Source of the DNA: a bacterium
Lineage (GTDB): Bacteria; Patescibacteriota; Minisyncoccia; JACQLN01
DNA: 64,000 nt
NCBI GenBank assembly: GCA_030697795.1
Contig: JAUYOV010000004.1
Location: 11,831-75,830 of the forward strand
Reading direction: 5' to 3'
The notes beneath the pieces were generated by a model. That model ran no database searches and was not told the origin of the DNA. It saw nothing but the letters and a program-made list of their open reading frames with translations. The position numbers were made by a program, and so were the translations under genes. Below are positions 5,182 to 63,852 of this stretch, in pieces. The first letter of the stretch is position 1; each line of letters begins with the position of its first letter.

Positions 5182-5191
5182 ATATTAATAA

Positions 5192-5273
5192 ATATATCAT
5201 CCCGAGTAGCATCATGGAGAAGACTATTTATATAAATAAAGAGGCTCCATGTCGTCTGCGAGGGGTGATATAT
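5192..5273. repeat. Copy A of the ~80-nt intergenic hairpin element, a candidate REP-doublet (REPIN-like; core CCGAGCAGCATTATGGAGAAGACT...AGGCTCCATATCGTCTGCGAGG)
   Basis: One of 4 copies sharing a ~60-nt core (about 80-90% identity by eye), with terminal inverted arms (ATATATCATCCC/GGGTGATATAT) that covary between copies. Confidence 0.8.
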
Positions 5274-5289
5274 TTACGCCAATAAACAC

Positions 5290-8267: not shown

Positions 8268-8354
8268 CAATCGCATCATTCCGAGCAGCATTATGGAGAA
8301 GACTAAATTATAAATAAAGAGGCTCCATATCGTCTGCGAGGAGTGATGCGATTG
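8268..8354. repeat. Copy B of the ~80-nt hairpin element
   Basis: Same core; terminal arms CAATCGCATCA/TGATGCGATTG. Confidence 0.8.
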
Positions 8355-9691: not shown

Positions 9692-9713
9692 GGTAATGGT
9701 AAAAAATTTAAAA

Positions 9714-9793
9714 AACATTGTCCCGAGCAGCATTATGGAGAAGACTATTTTATAAAATAAAGAGGCTCTATATCGTCTGCGAGGGATAATGTT
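9714..9793. repeat. Copy C of the ~80-nt hairpin element; fills the whole adk-map spacer
   Basis: Same core; arms AACATTGTCCC/GGGATAATGTT. Confidence 0.8.
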
Positions 9794-9795
9794 TT

Positions 9796-10362
9796 TTATA
9801 ACCCCAGTACCTGTTTAATTCGCAAATGAATTTCCTCTATACTACCCATACCATCAACCTTAATCAACCTATTCGATTTTTCGTAATATTCTATAGCTGG
9901 CATTGCATCGGTATTAAACCATTCCAAACGATGACGAATTGATTCTTCGGTATCATCTTTGCGTCCGCGTTTTAAAAGCCTTGTTACTGCTTCGTCTTCT
10001 GTAATATCTATTAAAACAACTTTAATATCTACTCTACCCAACCAACTTAAAACTTCGTCTATTTCTTTGGCTTCATCTAAACGACGAGGTGAGCCGTCAA
10101 AAATTATATTTTCTCCATCTTTTAATTTATAAACTAGTTCCTTCTGCCATAAAAAAGCGGCAATCCACTCTGGGGGCAGACCACCAGAATCCACAACTTC
10201 TTTAACTTTTTTACCAGCTAAAGTCTCTTCTTTTTCTAATAAACGAAAAAGATCGCCGGCGTAAATATAAAGACAGGGTTCTATAAGCTTTTTTAAAAGC
10301 TTAACCTGCGTGCCCTTACCCGACCCCGATCTGCCTAAAACGATTATGGTTTTACTAGACAT
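9796..10362 (-). CDS. adk: Adenylate kinase
   Basis: GRSGSGKGTQ P-loop and DGSPRRLDEA; start taken at MSSKT. Confidence 0.8.
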   Translation of the reverse strand: MSSKTIIVLGRSGSGKGTQVKLLKKLIEPCLYIYAGDLFRLLEKEETLAGKKVKEVVDSGGLPPEWIAAFLWQKELVYKLKDGENIIFDGSPRRLDEAKEIDEVLSWLGRVDIKVVLIDITEDEAVTRLLKRGRKDDTEESIRHRLEWFNTDAMPAIEYYEKSNRLIKVDGMGSIEEIHLRIKQVLGL

Positions 10363-11173: not shown

Positions 11174-11211
11174 TTGTCCACTTTTCAGGCGATCACATTA
11201 AAAATGGACAA
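11174..11211. repeat. 38-nt palindromic repeat TTGTCCA-N24-TGGACAA, downstream copy flanking the PaaX-like gene
   Basis: Near-identical to the copy at 11786-11823, including the internal ATCACATT. Confidence 0.7.
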
Positions 11212-11231: not shown

Positions 11232-11786
11232 CTAATTTAAACCAAATCTACTGCGTAAAAAATTGTCATTGGTTATACTTTTGGTAACAATATAATGAAC
11301 ATACTTACCTACTCCAAAAACTTCAGCGATAAAATCAACTTCGTTTTGGCAATTGTATGGATAAATCCAAACACTTTTCTGGAAAGGTATTAAACCCAAA
11401 TTTTTCATTTTTTCTCCCAAAGCATTGCGAGCCGATTTTTTATTTTCTGGAATATCAAAAACGACAATATGCCAATCGCCATCCCATTTTTTAGCTTTTT
11501 TTATAACCAGGCTATCAAACCTATATTCTAAAATCTTTTTCTTGCCTTGTTCGGTAAGAATAATTTTGACTTTATCATCACCCTCCTCTAAAAATTCTAA
11601 AACCTTGGTTTGACGTAACCGCCATAACACCTTTGAAACTTTCCTGGAACTAACACCTTTAACCTTAATATTATAATTAAAACCTCTACCCGATCTAGTG
11701 GTCTTGACCATTGGAATGTAAAACGGATCAAAAAAATATTTGCCAAATATGGTTTTGAGAATAATTTTGGTGATTGTATAAGCCAT
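11232..11786 (-). CDS. PaaX-like winged-helix regulator with Cas2-fold C-terminal domain (paralog 1)
   Basis: W(H/R)IV(V/L)FDIPE...QKSVWIYP PaaX_C/Cas2-like signature; paralog at 50272..50844. Confidence 0.55.
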   Translation of the reverse strand: MAYTITKIILKTIFGKYFFDPFYIPMVKTTRSGRGFNYNIKVKGVSSRKVSKVLWRLRQTKVLEFLEEGDDKVKIILTEQGKKKILEYRFDSLVIKKAKKWDGDWHIVVFDIPENKKSARNALGEKMKNLGLIPFQKSVWIYPYNCQNEVDFIAEVFGVGKYVHYIVTKSITNDNFLRSRFGLN

Positions 11787-11823
11787 TGTCCACTTTTAAT
11801 GCTATCACATTTTTTATGGACAA
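11786..11823. promoter_or_regulatory. Second copy of the TTGTCCA-N24-TGGACAA palindrome, in the divergent promoter region between the PaaX-like gene and the helicase gene
   Basis: Overlaps the PaaX-like start codon; candidate operator. Confidence 0.45.
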
Positions 11824-11884
11824 TTAAGTTTATCTTTTAATACTTCGTATATATAGATTGTAACGACCATCTAAAAATGATTAA

Positions 11885-17949: not shown

Positions 17950-18119
17950 GCTGGAATTATGTATCAGAAATCGGGAATTAGGAAGTCTAATTTGACATAA
18001 ATAGCTAATCAAGCACTCTCTTATGTTAAACATCCAGTGTTTAACATTGAGGTACATGATAATCCCTTTCAACTCGCAGACTCTGTTCAGGGTATTTATT
18101 CAACACTTAGTGTTGAATA

Positions 18120-23653: not shown

Positions 23654-26044
23654 TTAGGAAAAATTTTCTTTGTTTTCCTCTTCTGTGTGTATATCTATAG
23701 CTTCTGGTGGAACTTCTGATTTTACTAAAACCTCTCTAGGTTTAGCCCCTTCACCGGGACCAATCATGCCTTGAGCTTCTAGAATATCGAGTAATCTTGC
23801 GGCGCGGGCGTAGCCGACTCTTAATCGTCTCTGGAGTAAAGAAGCCGAAGCTTTACCAGCCTGCATAATAGCTTCTTTGGCTTGGAGTAAAAGTTCATCT
23901 TCGTCACTAGAATCCATTTTATCAAAACTTACACCGGTAAGTATTGGTCTATGATCTGAGACAGCTTTTTCCAAACCAAGCGCTTCTTCTGGATTAGCAT
24001 CAGGCGCGTCTTCGGGTAGATTAGATCTTATAAACGAAACAACTTTTTTAACTTCTTTTTCCGAAACAAAAGTGCCTTGAATACGTTTGGGCTTGGGCGA
24101 ATCAGAAGTTACAAAAAGCATATCGCCCATGCCTAAAAGTTTTTCGGCGCCAGCCGAATCTATAATTGTCCGTGAATCTATTTGCGAAGCCACCGCAAAA
24201 GCTATGCGCGTGGTAATGTTAGCTTTAATTAAACCCGTAATAACTTCTACCGAGGGCCGCTGTGTGGCTAAAACCAAATGTATGCCCACCGCCCGCGCCA
24301 TCTGCGCTAAACGCACTACTGTAGCTTCTATTTCACGCCCGTAAGTAGACATTAAGTCGGCCAGTTCATCTATAATGATAACCAAATAAGGCATTAAATC
24401 GTCGCCTTTTTTAGCATCAACTTGAGAATTAAAACCGCCAATATCTCTAACTTTTTTTTCGGAAAGCAGGCTATATCTTCTTTCCATTTCTGAAGTCGCC
24501 CATTTTAAAGCCGACACCGCTTTTTTAGGCTCTACTATAACTGGGGTTAAAAGATGCGGAATACCATTATACAAAGTTAATTCAACTCTTTTAGGATCAA
24601 TCATTATAAAGCGTAAAATTTCTGGCGAATGTTGATACAGCAAATTAACAATTAACGAATTTATGGCTACGCTTTTACCCGAACCCGTGGCGCCCGCAAT
24701 AAGCAGATGAGGCATTCTGGTTAAAGCCGACCACATCGACCGGCCAGAAACATCTTTGCCTAAACCAATATTTAAAAAGTTTTTATGCTCCGAAGCCTCA
24801 AAACCCTGAAGCAAAGCTTTTAAACGCACCACCATAGATTTTTGATTGGGTATTTCTATGCCCACTAAAGATTTTCCCGGAATCGGCGCTTCTATTCTTA
24901 AAGATTCTCCGCCTAGGGCTAAAGATAAATCTTTTTGCAAAGCTAATATGCTAGCCAGTTTGACTCCAGTGGCTGGTTTTAAAGTAAACTGGGTTACCGC
25001 AGGGCCAATATTAACTTCCGACATTTCTACCGGAATATTAAAATTCTCTAAAGTTTTCTGAATAATTATGGCATTGCCCTTAATGTCGCCCGTCACCGGC
25101 ATAGAGCCTTCGTCTTCTAATAAATCTAATGGTGGAAATTTATAGTTAACGGAAAGTGGCAACACACTAAATCCGCTCGCCATATTTTCTTGTTTCTTTT
25201 TTGAAACCTCATCTGACTTGGCCATTACTGACGTACCTTGAGGAGAATTTATAGTGACAGTGTCTTCAGCCGGTTTGGGCGCTTCAACTTTTTTAGCGGT
25301 TTGAGGTAGTTTAGCTTTGCTGGCTAACGTTGCAATTTTAGTTACTAAACCTTTTTCTAAAACTAATTTTTTTTCTGGAATCATTTCGCCATTTTCGTCC
25401 GCCTTAAAAACAAATTTTTCTTTTATTTGATCTTTCAAAGGCAAACGAAAAACAATCAACATAGCCGAAAAGAAAAACGCCACAAAAAATATTAAAGAAC
25501 CCCAAAAACCAAACATCTGCCTAAACGGCCAGCCAAAATAATAACCCATTTTACCGCCAGCCTGATTTTGCGAAAATATTTCCATCAAGCCCAAAAAACT
25601 TAAAATTAGAACACTGCCCCCGATTATAGTGGAACCTAATATTTTTTTCTTGTCGGAAGTTAAAATAAAAAACGACATTAAAAACATCGTTAAAGGCACA
25701 AAGAAACTACCGGAACCAAACATATAATCGGCACCGGCTGTAATGGCTTCGGAAAAAGATCCCGACAAGCCAAAGAAAGCTAAGGTAGTTACCAAAGCCA
25801 CAGCCAGCAAAAGAACGCCCACTACGCTTCTTTTAACGCTTGATTCTAAATGGAGCCAAGAAGTTGTTCTTTTTGGCTTTTTTACTTGAGATTTTTTAAG
25901 ATTTTTAATATCCTCCTTTTCTTTTTCAGCAGGCATTAGGTTTAATCTATTACTAGAAAATAATAACATACAAAAAAGCCAAATAACAACAACGTTTTTC
26001 AGGAAGGGCGGTCCTTCCGATAGATTTCCTGCTATTTTTGGCAA
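23654..26044 (-). CDS. ftsK: DNA translocase FtsK/SpoIIIE; true start downstream of the ORF-track start, whose first codons overlap a REP
   Basis: GATGSGKS Walker A, C-terminal gamma wHTH domain, N-terminal TM segments. Confidence 0.9.
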   Translation of the reverse strand: MPKIAGNLSEGPPFLKNVVVIWLFCMLLFSSNRLNLMPAEKEKEDIKNLKKSQVKKPKRTTSWLHLESSVKRSVVGVLLLAVALVTTLAFFGLSGSFSEAITAGADYMFGSGSFFVPLTMFLMSFFILTSDKKKILGSTIIGGSVLILSFLGLMEIFSQNQAGGKMGYYFGWPFRQMFGFWGSLIFFVAFFFSAMLIVFRLPLKDQIKEKFVFKADENGEMIPEKKLVLEKGLVTKIATLASKAKLPQTAKKVEAPKPAEDTVTINSPQGTSVMAKSDEVSKKKQENMASGFSVLPLSVNYKFPPLDLLEDEGSMPVTGDIKGNAIIIQKTLENFNIPVEMSEVNIGPAVTQFTLKPATGVKLASILALQKDLSLALGGESLRIEAPIPGKSLVGIEIPNQKSMVVRLKALLQGFEASEHKNFLNIGLGKDVSGRSMWSALTRMPHLLIAGATGSGKSVAINSLIVNLLYQHSPEILRFIMIDPKRVELTLYNGIPHLLTPVIVEPKKAVSALKWATSEMERRYSLLSEKKVRDIGGFNSQVDAKKGDDLMPYLVIIIDELADLMSTYGREIEATVVRLAQMARAVGIHLVLATQRPSVEVITGLIKANITTRIAFAVASQIDSRTIIDSAGAEKLLGMGDMLFVTSDSPKPKRIQGTFVSEKEVKKVVSFIRSNLPEDAPDANPEEALGLEKAVSDHRPILTGVSFDKMDSSDEDELLLQAKEAIMQAGKASASLLQRRLRVGYARAARLLDILEAQGMIGPGEGAKPREVLVKSEVPPEAIDIHTEEENKENFS
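26000..26032. repeat. REP1 palindrome CAGGAAGGGCGGTCCTTCCGATAGATTTCCTGC at the 3' end of RAYT-1
   Basis: Further copies at 26526-26542 (inside RAYT-1), 26735-26750, 59691-59722; related sequence inside the helicase CDS at 12909-12941. Confidence 0.8.
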
Positions 26045-26706
26045 TCTTTATAGGAAAGCCAATCAAGAATAAAATCATCAAAGTCCTTTACACCGTCGAA
26101 ATAATCTGGAAAAGCTTTTTTGTTGATAATTTTTTGCTCTAATCTTTGAACACCTACATAATCAAGATAACTGGAATAATTATAACCATTTAAAAAATTT
26201 TGGGCCGCTAATTTATTTTTAATACCAGTTTCTTTCCAGTTAGGTTCAATCAACTTAATAGAATTTAAGTGTGTATAGGCAAAAATATATTTCAGATATT
26301 CATCTCTTTCAATATGTTTTGCTTGAAACCTTCCCTGAAATAAAGAACCGCTACGATCATGTCTTTTATTGAAATACATGGAATAACCGGTGGATACTTT
26401 TCCCATAAATTTAGAGAGTCCACCTTCTACAGTTTCTCTTGCAAGTAAATGGAAATGATTCGGCATTAATACATGTGCGCCTAAAGCAGTAATATCATCG
26501 CCAGTATTTACATCAAAAATATCTGGGAAGGACCGCCCTTCCAAAAGAAGCTCATTGATATCTACACGGTCATTGTTATTACAAAGATAAAGGAGCATCA
26601 AAAAACGTCTATATTCGCCTGTAGATTCAAATATAGTCCTCTTATCCACACCTCGATTGTAGATATGATAATATTCCCCTACAGAGAAAGTGAATTTACG
26701 TTGCAT
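26032..26706 (-). CDS. REP-associated tyrosine transposase (RAYT; IS200-like HuH Y1 transposase), copy 1
   Basis: GEYYHIYNRGV, HuH motif LMPNHFHLL, catalytic-Tyr helix region; flanked by REP1 palindromes. Confidence 0.7.
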   Translation of the reverse strand: MQRKFTFSVGEYYHIYNRGVDKRTIFESTGEYRRFLMLLYLCNNNDRVDINELLLEGRSFPDIFDVNTGDDITALGAHVLMPNHFHLLARETVEGGLSKFMGKVSTGYSMYFNKRHDRSGSLFQGRFQAKHIERDEYLKYIFAYTHLNSIKLIEPNWKETGIKNKLAAQNFLNGYNYSSYLDYVGVQRLEQKIINKKAFPDYFDGVKDFDDFILDWLSYKDCQK

Positions 26707-26840: not shown

Positions 26841-26918
26841 GTCGGGGGTAGCTCAATTGGTCAGAGCGGCTGACTGTGGATCAGACTGTGTCGGTTCAAA
26901 CCCGGCTCCCCGGCACCA
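26841..26918 (+). tRNA. tRNA-His (anticodon GTG) with G-1:C73
   Basis: Manual cloverleaf: G-1, acceptor TCGGGGG/TCCCCGG, D-arm GCTC/GAGC, anticodon loop CTGTGGA, T-arm GTCGG-TTCAAAC-CCGGC. Confidence 0.7.
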
Positions 26919-27017: not shown

Positions 27018-27123
27018 TCCGCGGTAACTCAGAGTGCTGACTTAAGGGCCGCAAGCCCCGGCCGGTTAGAGTGCCTAGCTGATAACTAGGAGGTCGTTGG
27101 TTCGAATCCAACCCGCGGAGCCA
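27018..27123 (+). tRNA. tRNA-Ile (anticodon GAT) carrying a ~31-nt hairpin insertion in the D-loop
   Basis: Acceptor TCCGCGG/CCGCGGA, D-stem ACTC/GAGT, anticodon arm CCTAG-CTGATAA-CTAGG, T-arm GTTGG-TTCGAAT-CCAAC, G73-CCA. Insert 27033-27063 AGTGCTGACTTAAGGGCCGCAAGCCCCGGCC. Confidence 0.5.
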
Positions 27124-30745: not shown

Positions 30746-30841
30746 AACACAGAATTTCTAATTTCCAATATCTAAATCCTAAACAATTTCTAAATTCTAA
30801 TTTTCCAGAATATATTTGGAGCATTGTGATTTGAGATTTGT

Positions 30842-32128
30842 TTAGAGTTTAGTGCTTAGGATTTGGAGTTCGATTAGAAATTTTTCTAACTCTTTTAGTT
30901 TAACCATCTCCACTTTCTCGCTGGCGCGATTTTTGACCTCCACACTTTCTTGCGCCAAAGTTTTATCGCTAACTATTATCCGATATGGAATACCAATTAA
31001 ATCAGCATCCGACAACTTTACACCGGCCGATTCTTCGCGATCATCCCATAAGACGTCAAACGTCTTTAAAGATTGATACAGCTTCTCGGCTTCTTTCTTG
31101 GTATCGCCCAATGAAACTAAATGAATTAAAAACGGAGCCACGCTCTTTGGCCACTTCATTCCAGCCTCATCGTTAAAAACTTCGGCCAGCACTCCAACTA
31201 AACGGCTCATACCTATACCATAACTGCCTAAGTATGGCGGTTTATCTTTACCATCGGAATCTTTAAAATTAATCCCCATTTTTTCGGAATAAACTGTGCC
31301 AAATCTAAATATATTTCCAATTTCAACGGAACTAGCTTCTTCAACTTGTCCACCGCATTTTGGACAAGGATCCCCAATCTTGTGAGTATAAATTTCTTTG
31401 TTTTGCGCCCAATCACATTCGCCAGCCGGCGAATTGCAGAAATAAATATTATCTTCACCTACTGGGCTTACTAACTGAAATTCATGTGTATGACCCGAAG
31501 TAAACACACCGCCCGAAGCTTCAACCACCTTAACATCTTTTAATCCAACCCTGTTAAACACTCGTAAATAAGCATCTTTAACTTCCCAGTAAAATTTGTC
31601 TAGATCTTCCCCTGTGGTATGCAAACTATATAAATCTTTCATCATAAACTCCCGCCCGCGCAATAGGCCTGACTTAGCCCGAGCCTCGTTTCTAAACTTG
31701 GTAGAAAAGTGATAAAGCTTAATCGGTAAATTTTTATAGCTTAAAGAATTTTTCCTAACTACATCTAAAAATATTTCCTCGTGTGTAAAAGAAAGTCCAT
31801 ATTCTTTTTCGTCTACCGATTTAAACTGATACATTATCTGTTTAACATTTGGATCTGCCCAACGGCCGGTTTCATTCCAAACATCGCGAGGATGAAGTAA
31901 TGGCATTAAAACTTCGGCACTGCCAATAGCATTCATTTCTTCACGCACGATTTGTTCTATTTTTTGATAAACCCGCCAACCTAAAGGCAAAAAGGTGTAT
32001 GAACCCGCCATAAGCTTGTCTACAAAACCCCCACGCAAAAGCAACCTAGCATTAGTAGCTGTTTCGTCCTTTGGATCATCCCTGCGAGTGTTTATAAACG
32101 ATTGAGAGTAACGCATAAGAGTTATCAC
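30842..32128 (-). CDS. proS: Prolyl-tRNA synthetase (short form lacking the INS editing domain)
   Basis: MRYSQSF..LLRGG..YTFLPLGWRV..IVREEMN..G..EVLMP, closely paralleling E. coli ProRS motifs. Confidence 0.85.
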   Translation of the reverse strand: MITLMRYSQSFINTRRDDPKDETATNARLLLRGGFVDKLMAGSYTFLPLGWRVYQKIEQIVREEMNAIGSAEVLMPLLHPRDVWNETGRWADPNVKQIMYQFKSVDEKEYGLSFTHEEIFLDVVRKNSLSYKNLPIKLYHFSTKFRNEARAKSGLLRGREFMMKDLYSLHTTGEDLDKFYWEVKDAYLRVFNRVGLKDVKVVEASGGVFTSGHTHEFQLVSPVGEDNIYFCNSPAGECDWAQNKEIYTHKIGDPCPKCGGQVEEASSVEIGNIFRFGTVYSEKMGINFKDSDGKDKPPYLGSYGIGMSRLVGVLAEVFNDEAGMKWPKSVAPFLIHLVSLGDTKKEAEKLYQSLKTFDVLWDDREESAGVKLSDADLIGIPYRIIVSDKTLAQESVEVKNRASEKVEMVKLKELEKFLIELQILSTKL

Positions 32129-32789: not shown

Positions 32790-32823
32790 TAGCATGAGCC
32801 ATGCGATCGCATGACTCATGCTA
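32790..32823. repeat. GCGATCGC-core palindrome TAGCATGAGCCATGCGATCGCATGACTCATGCTA (REP3 family)
   Basis: Family members at 50245-50280, 50896-50929, 52902-52931. Confidence 0.7.
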
Positions 32824-33942: not shown

Positions 33943-34099
33943 AAATGTCTAATATCCAATTACTAATATCGAATCAATGACTAATTTATAAATGCCTAAT
34001 TTTGAATTTAGTTATTAGACATTGGGATTTGATTAGAAATTATCCCTCGATTGGGCTCGGGATCCTGAGCCTGTCGAAGGAGGTATTAGAAATTGGAAA

Positions 34100-34691: not shown

Positions 34692-34720
34692 ACATGTTCA
34701 ACATTCAATGTTGAACATGT
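34692..34720. repeat. REP2 palindrome ACATGTTCAACATTCAATGTTGAACATGT, left flank of RAYT-2
   Basis: Perfect palindrome; copies at 34901-34925 (inside the CDS) and 35390-35418. Confidence 0.85.
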
Positions 34721-34734
34721 TATAATTTTGATAT

Positions 34735-35391
34735 ATGAGAAAAACAATTTTGGCCGAAGGCGAATATTATCATATCTATAATCGTGGTGTAGAGAAAAGA
34801 AACATATTTTTAAACGATAACGATAAGTGGCGATTTATGACCCTCTTACTAATATTTCAAGGCAAGGGTCATATTGATAATATGCAACGTATTGTTAAAC
34901 TTGTTCAACATTCAATGTTGAACAAAGAACCATTTGACGACATCCTTTTGAATAAAAAGGTTGAACTGATATGTTTCTGTCTGATGCCAAATCATTATCA
35001 CCTTATATTAAAAGAAATTAAAAATGGAGGAATTTCTAGTTTTGGGCAAAGATTAGGTAACAGTTATACAAAATATTTCAACACTAAATATAAACGCACT
35101 GGACACTTATTTGGTGGAAGATTTCAAACGGTTCACATAACTCAAAATACATATCTCAAACATTTATCTTCTTATATACACAATAATCTAACAGAACTAA
35201 ATAATTGGAAAAAATTGGAAAACGAATATTTTTGGTCAAGTCTGCCAGATTATGTAAATAAAAACCGATGGGATAAGTTTCTAAACCCGGAAATAATTCT
35301 AAACCAGTTTAGGGGTAAAAATGATTATCTAAATTACATCAAAAATAATCGAAACAAAATTAAAAAACTAGATGGTTACTATATAGATTAA
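34735..35391 (+). CDS. REP-associated tyrosine transposase (RAYT), copy 2
   Basis: GEYYHIYNRGV, LMPNHYHLIL HuH motif; paralog of 26032..26706. Confidence 0.7.
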   Translation: MRKTILAEGEYYHIYNRGVEKRNIFLNDNDKWRFMTLLLIFQGKGHIDNMQRIVKLVQHSMLNKEPFDDILLNKKVELICFCLMPNHYHLILKEIKNGGISSFGQRLGNSYTKYFNTKYKRTGHLFGGRFQTVHITQNTYLKHLSSYIHNNLTELNNWKKLENEYFWSSLPDYVNKNRWDKFLNPEIILNQFRGKNDYLNYIKNNRNKIKKLDGYYID

Positions 35392-35418
35392 TTGTTCAAC
35401 ATTCAATGTTGAACAATT
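35390..35418. repeat. REP2 palindrome, right flank of RAYT-2
   Basis: AATTGTTCAACATTCAATGTTGAACAATT. Confidence 0.85.
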
Positions 35419-37969: not shown

Positions 37970-38058
37970 GCAGAAATATTATCTTGAGCAGCATTGTGGA
38001 GAAGACTATTTATATAATAAAGAGGCTCCACATCGTCTGCGAGAGATAATGTTTCTGC
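37970..38058. repeat. Copy D of the ~80-nt hairpin element
   Basis: Same core; arms GCAGAAATATTATCT/AGATAATGTTTCTGC. Confidence 0.8.
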
Positions 38059-39074: not shown

Positions 39075-39269
39075 AATAGTATAAATTACGAAATTCTAAT
39101 ATCTAAATTCGAAACAATATCTAAATATTAAATTATAATTTGGAATTTTGAACATTGTGATTTGTTTAGAATTTAGTGCTTAGTATTTATAATTTTCTGC
39201 CGACTTTATACTAACATCCTAAAACCATTTTTCAAACTAATCAAAGTATGCTAATTTAAAGTCGTTAAA

Positions 39270-50244: not shown

Positions 50245-50280
50245 TTAGCACGAGTCATGCGATAGCAGTTCTCATGCTAA
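50245..50280. repeat. REP3-family palindrome (degenerate) overlapping the 3' end of PaaX-like paralog 2
   Basis: TTAGCACGAGTCATGCGATAGCAGTTCTCATGCTAA. Confidence 0.6.
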
Positions 50281-50844
50281 ATCAAAAATCTTGAGCAAGT
50301 GTAATTCATTATCTAAATCCGTAGCCGTAATAATTCTAACGTAGGAACGAATACTAAAATATTCAATCAAGAAATTGATTTCATCTTGGCAAGGATAAGG
50401 CTGTATCAAAACACTTTTTTGATATTCATAAAAACCTAATCTTTTTAGAGTTTCTCTTAAAGCTTCGCGGGCAGGTTTATGTTTTTCTGGTATATCAAAT
50501 AAAACTATTCGCCATTTTTTATCCCAGACTTTAGGTTTTTTGATTCCCATATTGTCTATATTAAAGGTAATGGCTTTATCCTTGCCTTTGTCTGTTAAAA
50601 TCATAGTTAAAGAACCGTCGGGGTTTTCATGTTCGCGGATAAGTTTGGATTTATACAAGCTGGCTATAGCTCTTTCTAAAGACTGTTTGTTAATTTTTTT
50701 CCATTCTTCAGCCGTGCTTTCTAATACTCGAAAATATTGTTTAGAGGTTCTGGCAAAGCTAAGACCTATTCCAGTAAATAAAAGTAATAATGCTTTTTGT
50801 TGGTTGGGACCTAAGCGTTGAATTTTCTTTTTCAAATTAATCAT
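50272..50844 (-). CDS. PaaX-like winged-helix regulator with Cas2-fold C-terminal domain (paralog 2)
   Basis: WRIVLFDIPEKHKPAREALRETLKRLGFYEYQKSVLIQP. Confidence 0.55.
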   Translation of the reverse strand: MINLKKKIQRLGPNQQKALLLLFTGIGLSFARTSKQYFRVLESTAEEWKKINKQSLERAIASLYKSKLIREHENPDGSLTMILTDKGKDKAITFNIDNMGIKKPKVWDKKWRIVLFDIPEKHKPAREALRETLKRLGFYEYQKSVLIQPYPCQDEINFLIEYFSIRSYVRIITATDLDNELHLLKIFDLA

Positions 50845-50895
50845 TCTTCTGCATTATTTTATTAGTTAGTTATTATATTATAATTATGGTAATTA

Positions 50896-50929
50896 TAGCA
50901 CGAGAACTGCGATCGCAGTTCTCGTGCTA
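50896..50929. promoter_or_regulatory. Perfect 34-nt palindrome TAGCACGAGAACTGCGATCGCAGTTCTCGTGCTA in the promoter region of PaaX-like paralog 2
   Basis: REP3 family; candidate operator. Confidence 0.5.
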
Positions 50930-51155: not shown

Positions 51156-51635
51156 TTACTTTTCCTTTTCTTTAGAATCTTCTTCGGAAGCCGGGACTGA
51201 AAGCTCAAACTTGAAAAGATCAGAAAAATAAAAAATAGCTACTGTTATAGCCGTCCAAAAACAAACATTGTAAGGATTTGCCTCATATCTAAACATATAA
51301 AAGCCCCCACAAATAATCGGCGTTACTATCGTAAGTGTATAAAAAATACAGATCAAAAACCATGATCGATTCTTCATATCCAAAACATCTATATTTTTCT
51401 TTTCCATATGGCGAGTAGCAAGAACAAGTAAAGGTACAAATGGTGTTACAATAATACTGGCAAAAAACATTGGAATTTTTTCCAAGTCAAATGATCTTGT
51501 TTTGCTTGATGTAGTTACTTTAACAGAAAAAATAAATTCGATTACATAAGAAGAATGGAAAGTGCAAACTATACATCCGACCACATAAAGAAGAAATATT
51601 ACCAAGCACAACCACTCCCATACTTCTGAATACAT
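51156..51635 (-). CDS. Hypothetical polytopic membrane protein
   Basis: ORF only; own terminator at 51120-51155. Confidence 0.4.
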   Translation of the reverse strand: MYSEVWEWLCLVIFLLYVVGCIVCTFHSSYVIEFIFSVKVTTSSKTRSFDLEKIPMFFASIIVTPFVPLLVLATRHMEKKNIDVLDMKNRSWFLICIFYTLTIVTPIICGGFYMFRYEANPYNVCFWTAITVAIFYFSDLFKFELSVPASEEDSKEKEK

Positions 51636-51721: not shown

Positions 51722-52690
51722 CTTGTAATGTCTCATATCTTATGCATAGGTTTTAGTTAGTATTTGAGCCATCTTTTGAGCAGGGGTTAAACCCTGTAAA
51801 CCTAGATGTGGACGATGGTTGATAAACTTGTCAGTGTAGGTTTTTAAGGAGCTATTCAAGGTGGTTAGAGACTGATTTAAGGATACTTTTCTCCAGAGTT
51901 CTTCGTCAATGGTTCTAATGAATCTCTCTACTATGGAATTGTCTCTAGGTTTTCTGATTCTTGAATAACGATGCAGAATCTTTAACTTGTTTAATTCTTG
52001 AACAAACTCTTTCTGAAACTCGGGACCATTATCTGTTTGAATCATCCCTACTTTAAAAGGTAATCTAGTTAAAGCTGATCGTAAAGCTCGGCTGGCTGAT
52101 GCCATAGAAAGTTTTTCTGTAACAATACAGACTGGATATATATCTGGTAGCCACATCCACGAAAACATACTGGTATCTTCTAGATTGATTTTTAACCATT
52201 AGATGCTTGGTATCTAACAAAACTAGCTTGCCGTCCTCTTGGGGTCTAAAGATGGGAGGTAGTTGTCTGTGTCTCCTTTGGTATCTATGTTTTGATTTAA
52301 TCAGCTGGTTTCTTTTAAGGACGCGGTAGGTTGTTATGTTGGTAATGCTGATACCTTGAGCCTTCAGGTAAAGAACTATCTTTTGATGACACCAACCCTC
52401 GGTTTTTCTTAAATGAATAATCTTTTCTTCTAACTCCAGAGAGGTCTGCTTGGGATGGGCACTTAAAGGCATCGGTCGAAAACTTTGAAGAGTGGGATAC
52501 ATACCCAACCAGCGGCTGATGGTAGATTGGTTGAAACCAAAGTATCTACTGATTCTCGACTGCGACCAACCTAACTCTTTAAGTTGCCAAACTTGGCGTC
52601 TGACTGCGATAATGTTTTTGTGAATGTGCATATATGGTGAGTGTATCATTTGACTACTCACCTATGCATTTTGAATGAAACATTACAATT
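51722..52690 (-). mobile_element. IS481-family-like insertion sequence (~970 bp) with imperfect ~30-bp terminal inverted repeats (TTGTAATGTYTCAT...ATGCATAGGT)
   Basis: Left IR 51722-51752 matches the reverse complement of right IR 52655-52690; encodes an HTH plus DDE (rve) transposase. Confidence 0.7.
51740..52661 (-). pseudogene. IS481-like DDE transposase split into two overlapping ORFs by a frameshift in a T5/A5 homopolymer (~52112-52116)
   Basis: The ORFs 52065..52661 (HTH plus start of rve) and 51740..52168 (DNGPEF...rve core) are related by a +1 shift. IS481 transposases are normally single-ORF. Confidence 0.55.
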
Positions 52691-53876
52691 ACTCTATAAC
52701 TCCTCCGCCTAGCAGTTCTTCACCCTGATAAAATACTACCGATTGGCCAGAGGCGACAGCGCGGACTGGTTTTTCAAAAACCACCTTCCACCGAGCTGAG
52801 CTCGGTCCGCTTTCAAGCTTTGATAACATTGCCGAAATTGGTTCTTGTCTGTAACGAATAGATGCCTGAATTTTAACCAACTTCTCTGATTCCTCTTTTG
52901 TACACCGAGCATACGATCGTATGCTCGGTGTATCATTATTTATAAAACTAACATTAGTAGCAATTAACTCTTTTGATTCTAAAGCCGACATATCTGTAAT
53001 AGGCGAAACGATTAAAGTATTAGTTTCGTAATCTTTTTTAGCAACGTAATACGGCCCAGTACCTCCTATGCCGATTCCTTTTCGTTGGCCAATGGTGTAA
53101 AAATATAAACCGGCATGTGTGCCAATTTTTTGCCCAGAAGTTGTAACAATATCGCCAATTTCTTTTTTAACGTACGGCTTTATAAATTCTTTAATATCCA
53201 CCGGCCCCATAAAACAAATTCCCTGTGAATCCTTTTTATTTGCCGTAGATAAACCCGCACCTTTCGCAAGTTTTCTAACTTCCGCTTTAGAGTCTATTTC
53301 GCCTATGGGGAATAAGCACTTAGCCAGTTGTTTTTGCTTGAGAGTCCAAAGGAAATAGGACTGATCTTTGTCTAAATAGCGAGCACGCAATAGCTTATAG
53401 CTTTTAGCTTTTAGCTTATTAGAATTTGAAAATTGGAAATTAAAAATTGGAAATTCCCGCGCCACGCGAGCATAGTGGCCCGTGGCAATATAATCAGCTC
53501 CAAGAGAAATAGCTTTTTCAAAAAATAAACCAAATTTAATTTCTTTATTACACATTACATCTGGGTTTGGAGTTCGCCCAACTGCATATTCGCGAAGCAT
53601 ATAATCTACCACCAAAGCTTTATATTCTTTTGTAAAATCCCAAGTTTCAAAGGGTATATTTAATTTTAAACAAACCCGCATAGCATCAGCACGATCTTCC
53701 TGCCACAAGCAAGGCCAAGCTGGATCGCTCCAGTTTTTCATAAATACACCGATTACATTATAGCCTTCATTTTTCAATAACAAAGCAGCAACAGAGCTAT
53801 CAACTCCGCCACTCATGCCTACATAAACCTTTCGACTCCGCTCAGGGCAAGTTTTTTGACCAACCGTATTTGACAT
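52689..53876 (-). CDS. mnmA: tRNA-specific 2-thiouridylase MnmA
   Basis: VGMSGGVDSSV PP-loop. Carries three in-frame repeat insertions; the IS abuts its stop codon. Confidence 0.85.
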   Translation of the reverse strand: MSNTVGQKTCPERSRKVYVGMSGGVDSSVAALLLKNEGYNVIGVFMKNWSDPAWPCLWQEDRADAMRVCLKLNIPFETWDFTKEYKALVVDYMLREYAVGRTPNPDVMCNKEIKFGLFFEKAISLGADYIATGHYARVAREFPIFNFQFSNSNKLKAKSYKLLRARYLDKDQSYFLWTLKQKQLAKCLFPIGEIDSKAEVRKLAKGAGLSTANKKDSQGICFMGPVDIKEFIKPYVKKEIGDIVTTSGQKIGTHAGLYFYTIGQRKGIGIGGTGPYYVAKKDYETNTLIVSPITDMSALESKELIATNVSFINNDTPSIRSYARCTKEESEKLVKIQASIRYRQEPISAMLSKLESGPSSARWKVVFEKPVRAVASGQSVVFYQGEELLGGGVIE

Positions 53877-59690: not shown

Positions 59691-59722
59691 CAGGAAGGGC
59701 GGTCCTTCCGATAAATTTCCTA
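59691..59722. repeat. Distant copy of REP1 (CAGGAAGGGCGGTCCTTCCGATAAATTTCCTAG)
   Basis: About 33 kb from RAYT-1. Confidence 0.75.
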
Positions 59723-59740
59723 GGTTTTTAGCAAATAAAA

Positions 59741-62240: not shown

Positions 62241-62373
62241 AATTTATAAATTTCTAATATCTAATTTCTAATCAAATTCTAATGCCTAATAACTAAAGTA
62301 TAAATTTTGGCATTAGACCTTTGGTAATTAGTCATTGATTAGGAATTAGTAATTAGATGTTAGTCATTTTTTA

Positions 62374-63702: not shown

Positions 63703-63852
63703 TGAATTTATTTATTTAACATCATGTATAACAGCTAAAAAATATTTTGGCAAGTCAAAACAACCAAACTAACAATGTTAACGCAATCAACGATCGTTTA
63801 TTATATTAACATTGTGTTGGGTATTGATTTATTTCAGGTATAACTAAAAAAT

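Follow-up and report, generated by a model that had tools for sequence, protein, structure and literature searches.

A short PaaX_M gene of Patescibacteria bracketed by members of its own palindrome family

The 64,000-nucleotide stretch of patescibacterial DNA analyzed here (positions 11,831 to 75,830 of contig JAUYOV010000004.1, assembly GCA_030697795.1; hereafter, the window) carries a gene for a small protein with a Cas2-fold PaaX_M domain, mini-PaaX paralog 2, with one long palindrome upstream of its start and another over its stop codon. The locus exemplifies a self-contained module, widespread in Patescibacteria (also known as the candidate phyla radiation, CPR), that consists of a gene of ~185 aa and two private palindromes. 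Gene and palindromes are associated whichever of the two is searched for first, the symmetry of the palindromes is conserved, their arms are specific to the gene that they flank, copies of them are dispersed to other places, and the gene is vertically inherited. We consider it slightly better than an even bet (probability roughly 0.55) that a mini-PaaX dimer binds its own palindrome family and that the promoter copy serves in autorepression. The module is outside the PaaX equivalog, CRISPR Cas2 and the RAYT family of transposases, and a full-text search of the literature on PaaX in combination with Cas2-like, Patescibacteria or palindromes found no description of it.

A Cas2-fold gene with a palindrome at each end

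The initial annotation of the window, made from the letters alone, had assigned the product of the gene to a PaaX/Cas2 fold, and domain and structural searches agree with it. The protein matches PF20803 (PaaX_M) with E=2.5e-22 and 79.2 bits against a cut-off of 24, and the best Foldseek matches of its AlphaFold2 (AF2) model (predicted local distance difference test, pLDDT, of 83.7) are Cas2 structures, with a probability of about 1.0 and template modeling (TM) scores to the target of 0.5-0.67; the PaaX structure 8a39 from E. coli is also among the matches. The model comprises an N-terminal helical domain with a beta wing and a C-terminal ferredoxin-like domain, and residues 22-90 give weak matches to MarR/F93 winged helices. 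The protein does not have the full PaaX architecture: PaaX_M is the only one of the PaaX domains to be matched, with nothing found for the PaaX N-terminal domain or PaaX_C, the hhalign alignment to E. coli PaaX covers the central domain only, the C-terminal ligand domain of PaaX is missing, and the score against the PaaX equivalog TIGR02277 (31.7 bits) is far below its cut-off of 264.55. The score against the cas2 family TIGR01573 is just below the cut-off (22.1 against 24.5 bits), and in the alignment of positions 2-37 of that hidden Markov model (HMM) with residues 111-145, D117 falls on the Cas2 Asp. The FDIPE motif that contains D117 is invariant in 29/29 family sequences, and the corresponding position reads SEGLD in E. 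coli PaaX and VTSIG in the PaaX-like structure 3kfw. Scans of domain libraries with paralog 2 found no HUH/Tyr transposase, recombinase or other known mobilization domain, and PF01797 (Y1 HUH transposase) gave no match, though it does match the true RAYT of the window. An identical protein is on record from a groundwater metagenome-assembled genome (MAG). The family as a whole amounts to 498 clusters (50% identity) at E<=1e-30 and 2,803 at E<=1e-10, with lengths mostly of about 180-200 aa among the best 150 members listed.

A perfect 34-nt palindrome had been reported by the promoter region of the gene, at 50896-50929, and it is there exactly as described. The sequence of this upstream palindrome, U (TAGCACGAGAACTGCGATCGCAGTTCTCGTGCTA), had no match at up to 3 mismatches in any of 100 shuffles of this AT-rich window (38% GC), and as a DNA hairpin it folds with -17.5 kcal/mol (z=-8.5). 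The palindromes of the window as single strands fold far better than shuffles do (z from -3.2 to -9.8), and the shuffle tests reject a chance origin of the palindromes. The degenerate copy said to overlap the last codons of the gene, D, does so, at 50246-50279 and not at 50245-50280 as first given, which amounts to a shift of 1 nt. Read by eye, D is identical to U at 29/34 positions (5 differences), too diverged for the 3-mismatch search with which U was tested, and its position relative to the stop codon (centre at about +8) is the same in the related loci L002-L006, L011 and L014. D is also a chimera, in that the arm nearer the gene carries the inner block AACTG of U and the distal arm carries TCATG, which is also found in a solo copy 18 kb away (32790-32823). 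This could reflect an exchange at the centre or simple mutation.

The one claim about these sites that did not survive was that the octamer GCGATCGC, the centre of U, is the signal. The octamer occurs twice in the 64 kb against 0.38 expected, a count reached in 7/100 shuffles, so a HIP1-like enrichment of the octamer was rejected. The copy inside mnmA has ACGATCGT at its centre and the stop-codon copy GCGATAGC, and what is common to the family is a CGATCG-like centre. On the other hand, the earlier observation that the two mini-PaaX paralogs of the window have distinct palindromes was correct: the quasi-palindromes that bracket paralog 1 differ from those of paralog 2, and the same is seen in other genomes. 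At the gathering threshold, Rfam found two tRNAs only in the whole window, so that the palindromes match no known RNA family, and no spaced repeat array of the CRISPR type was found in the window.

Symmetry, gene-specific arms and dispersed copies

The bracketing first noticed in the window proved to be general in a gene-first sample of 80 homologue loci from GTDB genomes, all of them Patescibacteria, in which both gene ends were scanned. Most of the 82 homologous genes have a palindrome of 28-46 nt at each end, the upstream site lying 25-120 nt before the start and the downstream site between 8 nt before and about 100 nt after the stop. When a palindrome score of 8 or higher was required, there were 50 upstream sites and 58 downstream sites, and 41 genes had both; many of the lower-scoring loci have less symmetric sites that still match between both gene ends. 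In addition, 99 of the 113 long palindromes with a CGATCG-like centre in the 650 kb of these loci lie within 200 nt of the end of a PaaX_M gene, and 14 lie elsewhere. The spacing between the two copies of one gene ranges from 605 to 776 nt, and within that range the 10-11-bp periodicity expected from helical phasing, looked for as a test of DNA looping, was not found. Clusters of more than two copies occur in relatives (L098 723-825; L038 3915-5734; L059 3909-4788), in the form either of two solos about 40 nt apart or of a third copy, sharing the arms of the other two and placed 0.1-1 kb past the downstream one.

Conservation is concentrated in the centre of the sites, C(G/T)A|T(C/A)G, with 1.3-2 bits per position, against less than 0.65 bits in the arms, whose positions ±8 to ±15 are nevertheless 88-94% complementary. 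In an ungapped alignment of 117 sites, 87% of the cells were paired versus 48.5% in shuffles and 33-41% when the pairing partner was slid by 1-3 columns; as the sites were picked by palindrome score, the paired percentage is inflated, a point to be held against the interpretation given below, but this choice cannot create the contrast with the controls. Changes on both sides were found in 867 cells of the same alignment. Comparing the arms at the two ends of a gene gives 82% identity, versus 36% for random gene pairs, and the differences between the two copies comprise 65 compensated and 37 single-sided changes. Paralogs in the same genome have different arms (L004/L007/L008/L028; L113/L115). 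The palindromes of orthologs vary in arm sequence, each remaining symmetric, which indicates that either selection or quasipalindrome correction actively maintains the symmetry. The numbers of G-T and A-C mismatches on the gene strand are similar (116 versus 88), hence there is no evidence for one acting strand; a hairpin acting at the RNA level on the gene strand was rejected for want of a clear excess of G-T over A-C.

Copies away from any mini-PaaX gene are also found, which justifies the earlier description of the palindromes as a dispersed, REP-like repeat (for repetitive extragenic palindromic). In the window, the intergenic family member noted at 32790-32823 is present, 34 nt long with one mispair. 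A further copy had been placed in frame in mnmA at 52902-52931; it is indeed a perfect palindrome, with its limits 1 nt further out on each side (52901-52932). It codes for TPSIRSYARCT and corresponds to an in-frame insertion of ~14 codons in a variable linker, common to L014 (same site) and absent from L005 and L006; this site, shared by the window and L014, is the only place where a palindrome was seen in a coding region. The arm type of another solo copy, at 63772-63815, also flanks a distant paralog in L082. The density of solos here is about 1 per 20-45 kb.

A palindrome-first scan of metagenomes with the pattern TAGCAYGAG-N4/5-CGATCG-N4/5-CTCRTGCTA matched 33 sites at 30 loci, representing about 25-29 distinct places. 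Six of these sites flank a PaaX_M gene, where by a rough estimate less than 1% of sites would do so by chance; 14 are solo, defined by a flank of at least 700 nt free of the gene on both sides, and 13 are not assignable to either class. The solos are almost all intergenic, many of them in convergent or 3'-proximal positions, many 4-50 nt past stop codons, about half with adjoining runs of A or T, and some next to canonical terminators. The same 32-mer can recur at as many as five different loci, and in L084, L093 and L096 the palindromes beside the gene have exact counterparts among the solos found elsewhere. On one contig with two paralogs, a solo 9 kb from paralog A has the arms of A and not those of B. 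Left/right chimeras were also noticed among the solo copies from metagenomes. Given the identical copies at unrelated loci and the in-frame insertion in mnmA, the palindromes must be copied between places. An origin of the solos as scars of gene decay was rejected, there being no gene remnants within 800 nt.

In contrast to the palindromes, the gene keeps its place. The order mnmA-gene-alaS-orf575 is conserved in L005, L006, L008, L009 and L014 and in two Hainich contigs (L115/L116), and in L001 and L011, on contigs that break off close to the gene, the gene-alaS side is retained. As AlaS of the syntenic genomes is only 64-77% identical to that of the window, this synteny shows that the gene is vertically inherited, and a recently mobile gene cassette was rejected on the same grounds. 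The neighbors in the window are alaS, mnmA and other housekeeping genes, with no linkage to paa genes; other paralogs sit among unrelated housekeeping genes, and across the 82 loci neither a recurrent partner gene nor a cas1 neighborhood was found. Mini-PaaX is separated from mnmA in the window by an inserted insertion sequence (IS) element and a 159-aa open reading frame (ORF), the two genes being neighbors in related genomes. A phage or defense origin was also discarded, as PHROGs gave noise only and PADLOC weak Cas2 matches only; the search of IMG/VR returned a single partial homologue, without palindromes.

What the module may do

In the interpretation that we favor, mini-PaaX would dimerize through its Cas2-fold domain and bind its own palindrome family, with the conserved centre C(G/T)AT(C/A)G on the dyad, under the conserved Cas2-fold dimer, and with the gene-specific arms read by the more variable winged-helix domains. 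Binding to the upstream copy, which overlaps the putative promoter of the gene, would result in autorepression, much as PaaX of E. coli autorepresses Px, its operator being TGATTC-N27-GAATCA (PMC9493321). The copy at the stop codon and the solos, mostly at gene ends, would be further sites for the same protein and may act as roadblocks, insulators or terminator-associated sites. We infer that recognition would be cognate, each paralog reading its own palindromes, with strong comparative support from the arm identities within and between genes and from the solo that has the arms of the neighboring paralog. As the palindromes behave like a copied repeat family, the whole system is organized like the REP/RAYT "REPtron"; by analogy, the module may thus be viewed as acting like a PaaX-type autoregulator and laid out like a REPtron.

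The promoter on which autorepression would act can be placed from its context. Two canonical terminators lie just upstream of U, so that a promoter of the gene itself must lie between 50929 and 50845. Because a simple -35/-10 scan upstream of the gene found no canonical promoter, which weakens the case for regulation there, the assignment relies on extended -10-like hexamers that were picked out by eye, one formed where the palindrome end meets TAAT, and further TATAAT hexamers at 50882->50877 and 50877->50872. In relatives, -10-like hexamers are found 0-25 nt past the U palindrome. Between 50100 and 51200, the terminator scan picked up three hairpins of terminator type, all of them away from U and D, and no canonical terminator after the mini-PaaX gene. 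Neither gene palindrome has the GC-rich stem and T-run of an intrinsic terminator; some solos elsewhere do have T-runs.

Several other observations weigh against simple autoregulation, in addition to the selection effect on the pairing percentages. The downstream copy is as conserved as the upstream one, although an ordinary autoregulator needs the promoter copy only, and many solos are convergent or 3'-proximal, where there is no promoter to regulate. The two copies of a gene often differ by fully compensated changes in the outer arms (L002, L004 and L006, by eye), which suggests that hairpins or cruciforms form or that quasipalindrome correction is at work, since the reading of half-sites in duplex DNA needs no such symmetry. 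A conserved centre between paired arms of free sequence is likewise the pattern expected from recognition of a hairpin loop, and identical copies at unrelated loci do not fit a plain transcription factor either. The downstream copy, the compensated differences, the solos without a promoter and the identical copies all match the REP/RAYT layout. Finally, binding itself is predicted from comparative evidence, as are autorepression and the assignment of protein parts to parts of the site, and any nuclease or mobilizing activity of mini-PaaX would be a prediction of the same kind.

Some of these points are taken up by a stricter analogy with REPtrons, unlikely in our judgment, in which mini-PaaX would be an enzyme that propagates or maintains the palindromes. 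Extruded or single-stranded hairpins would be recognized, CGATCG forming the loop and the arms the stem, and would be cut or joined by means of the Cas2-type acidic site (FDIPE), the gene being a domesticated, vertically inherited element flanked by its own substrates, as RAYTs are by REPs. The features listed for REP doublets forming hairpins (REPINs) and their RAYTs in two papers, namely cognate repeat flanks, family-specific association, vertical inheritance and A/T runs (PMC3337134; 10.1101/2022.05.22.493013), are all present here. The window's bona fide RAYT (PF01797) has the same layout, with its REP just upstream and over the stop, the putative loop is conserved and the stem covaries, identical 32-mers at several unrelated loci and the in-frame mnmA copy imply that the palindromes are copied, and the Cas2-type Asp is invariant in this family and replaced in E. 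coli PaaX and 3kfw. On the other hand, mini-PaaX has none of the transposase, recombinase or other known mobilization domains, and Cas2 is not known to have strand-transfer activity. Neither a target-site duplication nor an insertion polymorphism between close strains has been demonstrated, the symmetry could be due to quasipalindrome correction with no function of the hairpin, the mismatch counts give no sign of one acting strand, and the palindromes could be moved by the RAYT or by IS transposases that the genome also encodes.

In a broader formulation, which we rate as quite improbable, the module would represent a second, non-HUH class of REP-type systems, in which a Cas2-fold/winged-helix protein, vertically inherited in streamlined CPR genomes, specifically recognizes hairpin repeats by their conserved loop and covarying stem and, by means of the Cas2-type acidic site that it has kept, nicks, propagates or maintains them. 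If that were true, a Cas2-fold protein and palindromic repeats would for the first time be functionally paired outside CRISPR, and this might throw light on the origin of the association between Cas2 and repeats of this kind.

A role of the palindromes that needs no protein at all, as bidirectional terminators, hairpins at mRNA 3' ends or selfish miniature elements of another enzyme, is an equally doubtful proposal. It is consistent with the many solos 4-50 nt after stops, about half of them with A/T-runs, and with the two canonical terminator hairpins on either side of the 32790 solo, and the downstream copy may terminate the mini-PaaX gene, as no canonical terminator follows it. However, such a role leaves unexplained why copies are found on both sides of most of the 82 genes of one family, why the arms are paralog-specific, and why 99/113 palindromes of the gene-centred loci are at the gene. 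The canonical terminators of the window, GC-rich and T-tailed, look different, and two of them already precede U; the gene palindromes have no T-runs, and the G-T over A-C excess that an RNA hairpin would favor is missing.

It is very improbable that the palindromes are recombination sites with crossover in CGATCG, which would make the gene an excisable or invertible cassette and the solos scars or targets: the conserved centre between variable arms recalls dif or lox sites, the D copy joins a P1-type arm to an arm like that of the 32790 solo and left/right chimeras exist among the solos, but the module has no recombinase in it or consistently nearby, the gene keeps its place between mnmA and alaS at 64-77% AlaS identity, the asymmetric centres show no consistent orientation, direct or inverted, from one end to the other, and neither gene remnants near solos nor an empty site were seen.

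Several paralogs of the module are retained in CPR/Patescibacteria in spite of their tiny genomes with few recognizable regulators. If the protein binds its private palindromes, as we favor, the family would offer ready-made, naturally orthogonal pairs of protein and DNA site, and in this uncultivated phylum the module would probably be an important device for regulation or insulation; if it also propagates them, REP-like systems would have evolved at least two times with unrelated proteins, and a link between a Cas2-fold protein and palindromic repeats would exist outside CRISPR. The strong covariation provides a clean, testable prediction that requires no culture of the organism.

Known systems and other features of the window

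The closest counterpart in layout is the REP/RAYT system. There too, a short, vertically inherited gene, single-copy per family, stands between copies of its own palindromic repeat, further copies of this repeat are scattered through intergenic DNA, often near the ends of genes and next to A/T runs, and each paralog goes with a repeat family of its own. In contrast, mini-PaaX consists of a winged helix and a Cas2 fold, without HUH/Tyr motifs or Y1_Tnp, its palindromes have zero spacer and a conserved centre, where REPs are imperfect hairpins with a conserved 5' head that form doublets, and its solos seem few compared with the hundreds of REPINs. Degenerate copies of the palindrome of the window's RAYT were seen near 18024 and 18097 (18021-18046 and 18097-18119).

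With PaaX of E. coli and Pseudomonas, mini-PaaX shares the Cas2-like PaaX_M domain after an N-terminal winged helix, and the PaaX operator, a long inverted repeat of about 39 bp, has a span close to that of the 34-44-bp mini-PaaX palindromes. Unlike PaaX, mini-PaaX lacks the C-terminal ligand-binding domain (190 versus 316 aa) and has no paa genes nearby, keeps the Cas2-type FDIPE that was lost in E. coli PaaX, and occurs as several paralogs per genome, with sites on both sides of the gene and dispersed copies. As in Cas2 and VapD, there is a ferredoxin-like fold with an acidic residue at the end of strand 1, and some homologues are annotated as Cas2; in contrast to these proteins, mini-PaaX has an N-terminal DNA-binding domain, is accompanied by neither cas1 nor a CRISPR array, and has repeats that bracket the gene and not spacers. 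The octamer GCGATCGC, centre of some mini-PaaX palindromes, is also HIP1 of cyanobacteria, but HIP1 is a bare, hyper-abundant octamer, whereas here it is only the centre of palindromes of 30-45 nt, many of which have ACGATCGT, GCTATCGC or similar sequences instead. Rickettsia palindromic elements, of about 100-150 bp and without an associated protein, can insert in frame in coding genes; the mnmA copy resembles them in this respect, mini-PaaX palindromes being shorter. The features of the window are collected in Table 1.

Table 1. Positions of the mini-PaaX genes, their palindromes and other features in the window.
Feature	Position	Strand	Description
Mini-PaaX paralog 2	50272..50844	-	190 aa; N-terminal winged-helix-like domain and Cas2-fold PaaX_M domain
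Upstream palindrome U	50896-50929		perfect, 34 nt, TAGCACGAGAACTGCGATCGCAGTTCTCGTGCTA, centre GCGATCGC; overlaps putative promoter of paralog 2
Putative promoter and 5' untranslated region	50845-50900	-	palindrome end plus TAAT gives TGCTATAAT (50900->50892); candidate assignment
Downstream palindrome D	50246-50279		degenerate, chimeric, centre GCGATAGC; over last two codons and TGA stop of 50272..50844(-)
Solo palindrome	32790-32823		34 nt, one mispair, TAGCAYGAG arm family; convergent intergenic region, between two canonical hairpins
Solo palindrome	52901-52932		perfect, 32 nt, centre ACGATCGT; in frame in mnmA ORF 52689..53876(-)
Solo palindrome	63772-63815		other arm family, AATGTTAAC...GTTAACATT, centre ACGATCGT
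Mini-PaaX paralog 1	11232..11786	-	184 aa; 39% identical to paralog 2; PF20803 E=4.5e-22
Upstream quasi-palindrome of paralog 1	11786-11823		38 nt, TTGTCCA...TGGACAA, centre GCTATCAC
Downstream quasi-palindrome of paralog 1	11174-11211		38 nt, centre GCGATCAC
159-aa ORF	51156..51635		no known family
IS element	51740-52661	-	HTH_32/HTH_23 and rve_3 integrase-core ORFs in two overlapping frames (frameshift or programmed shift)
True RAYT	34735..35391	+	IS200-like Y1 transposase; PF01797 E=1e-9
RAYT palindrome	34695, 34902, 35393 (within 34692-35418)		TGTTCAACATTCAATGTTGAACA; just upstream of the gene, inside it and over its stop, respectively
Two tRNA genes	26842-26914, 27049-27119	+	Rfam gathering threshold

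The window contains three further kinds of repeat. An intergenic repeat of 58-86 nt is dispersed at 5190-5275, 8283-8340, 9711-9796 and 37986-38043, in copies that are 81-86% identical; it has an internal inverted symmetry (CCCGAGCAGCAT...GTCTGCGAGGG) and no Rfam match at the gathering threshold, and could be another miniature element or a small RNA. AT-rich intergenic blocks with AATTTCTAAT...TCTAAAT..., followed by TTTAGAGTTTAGTGCTTAGGATTT, are present at 30753-30882, 33944-34041, 39084-39206 and 62242-62292 and recur upstream of several minus-strand genes. Finally, a direct repeat of 46 nt (CAGGAAGGGCGGTCCTTCCGATA...) is found at 26000-26045 and 59691-59736, its two copies being 83% identical and each containing a short GC-rich hairpin.

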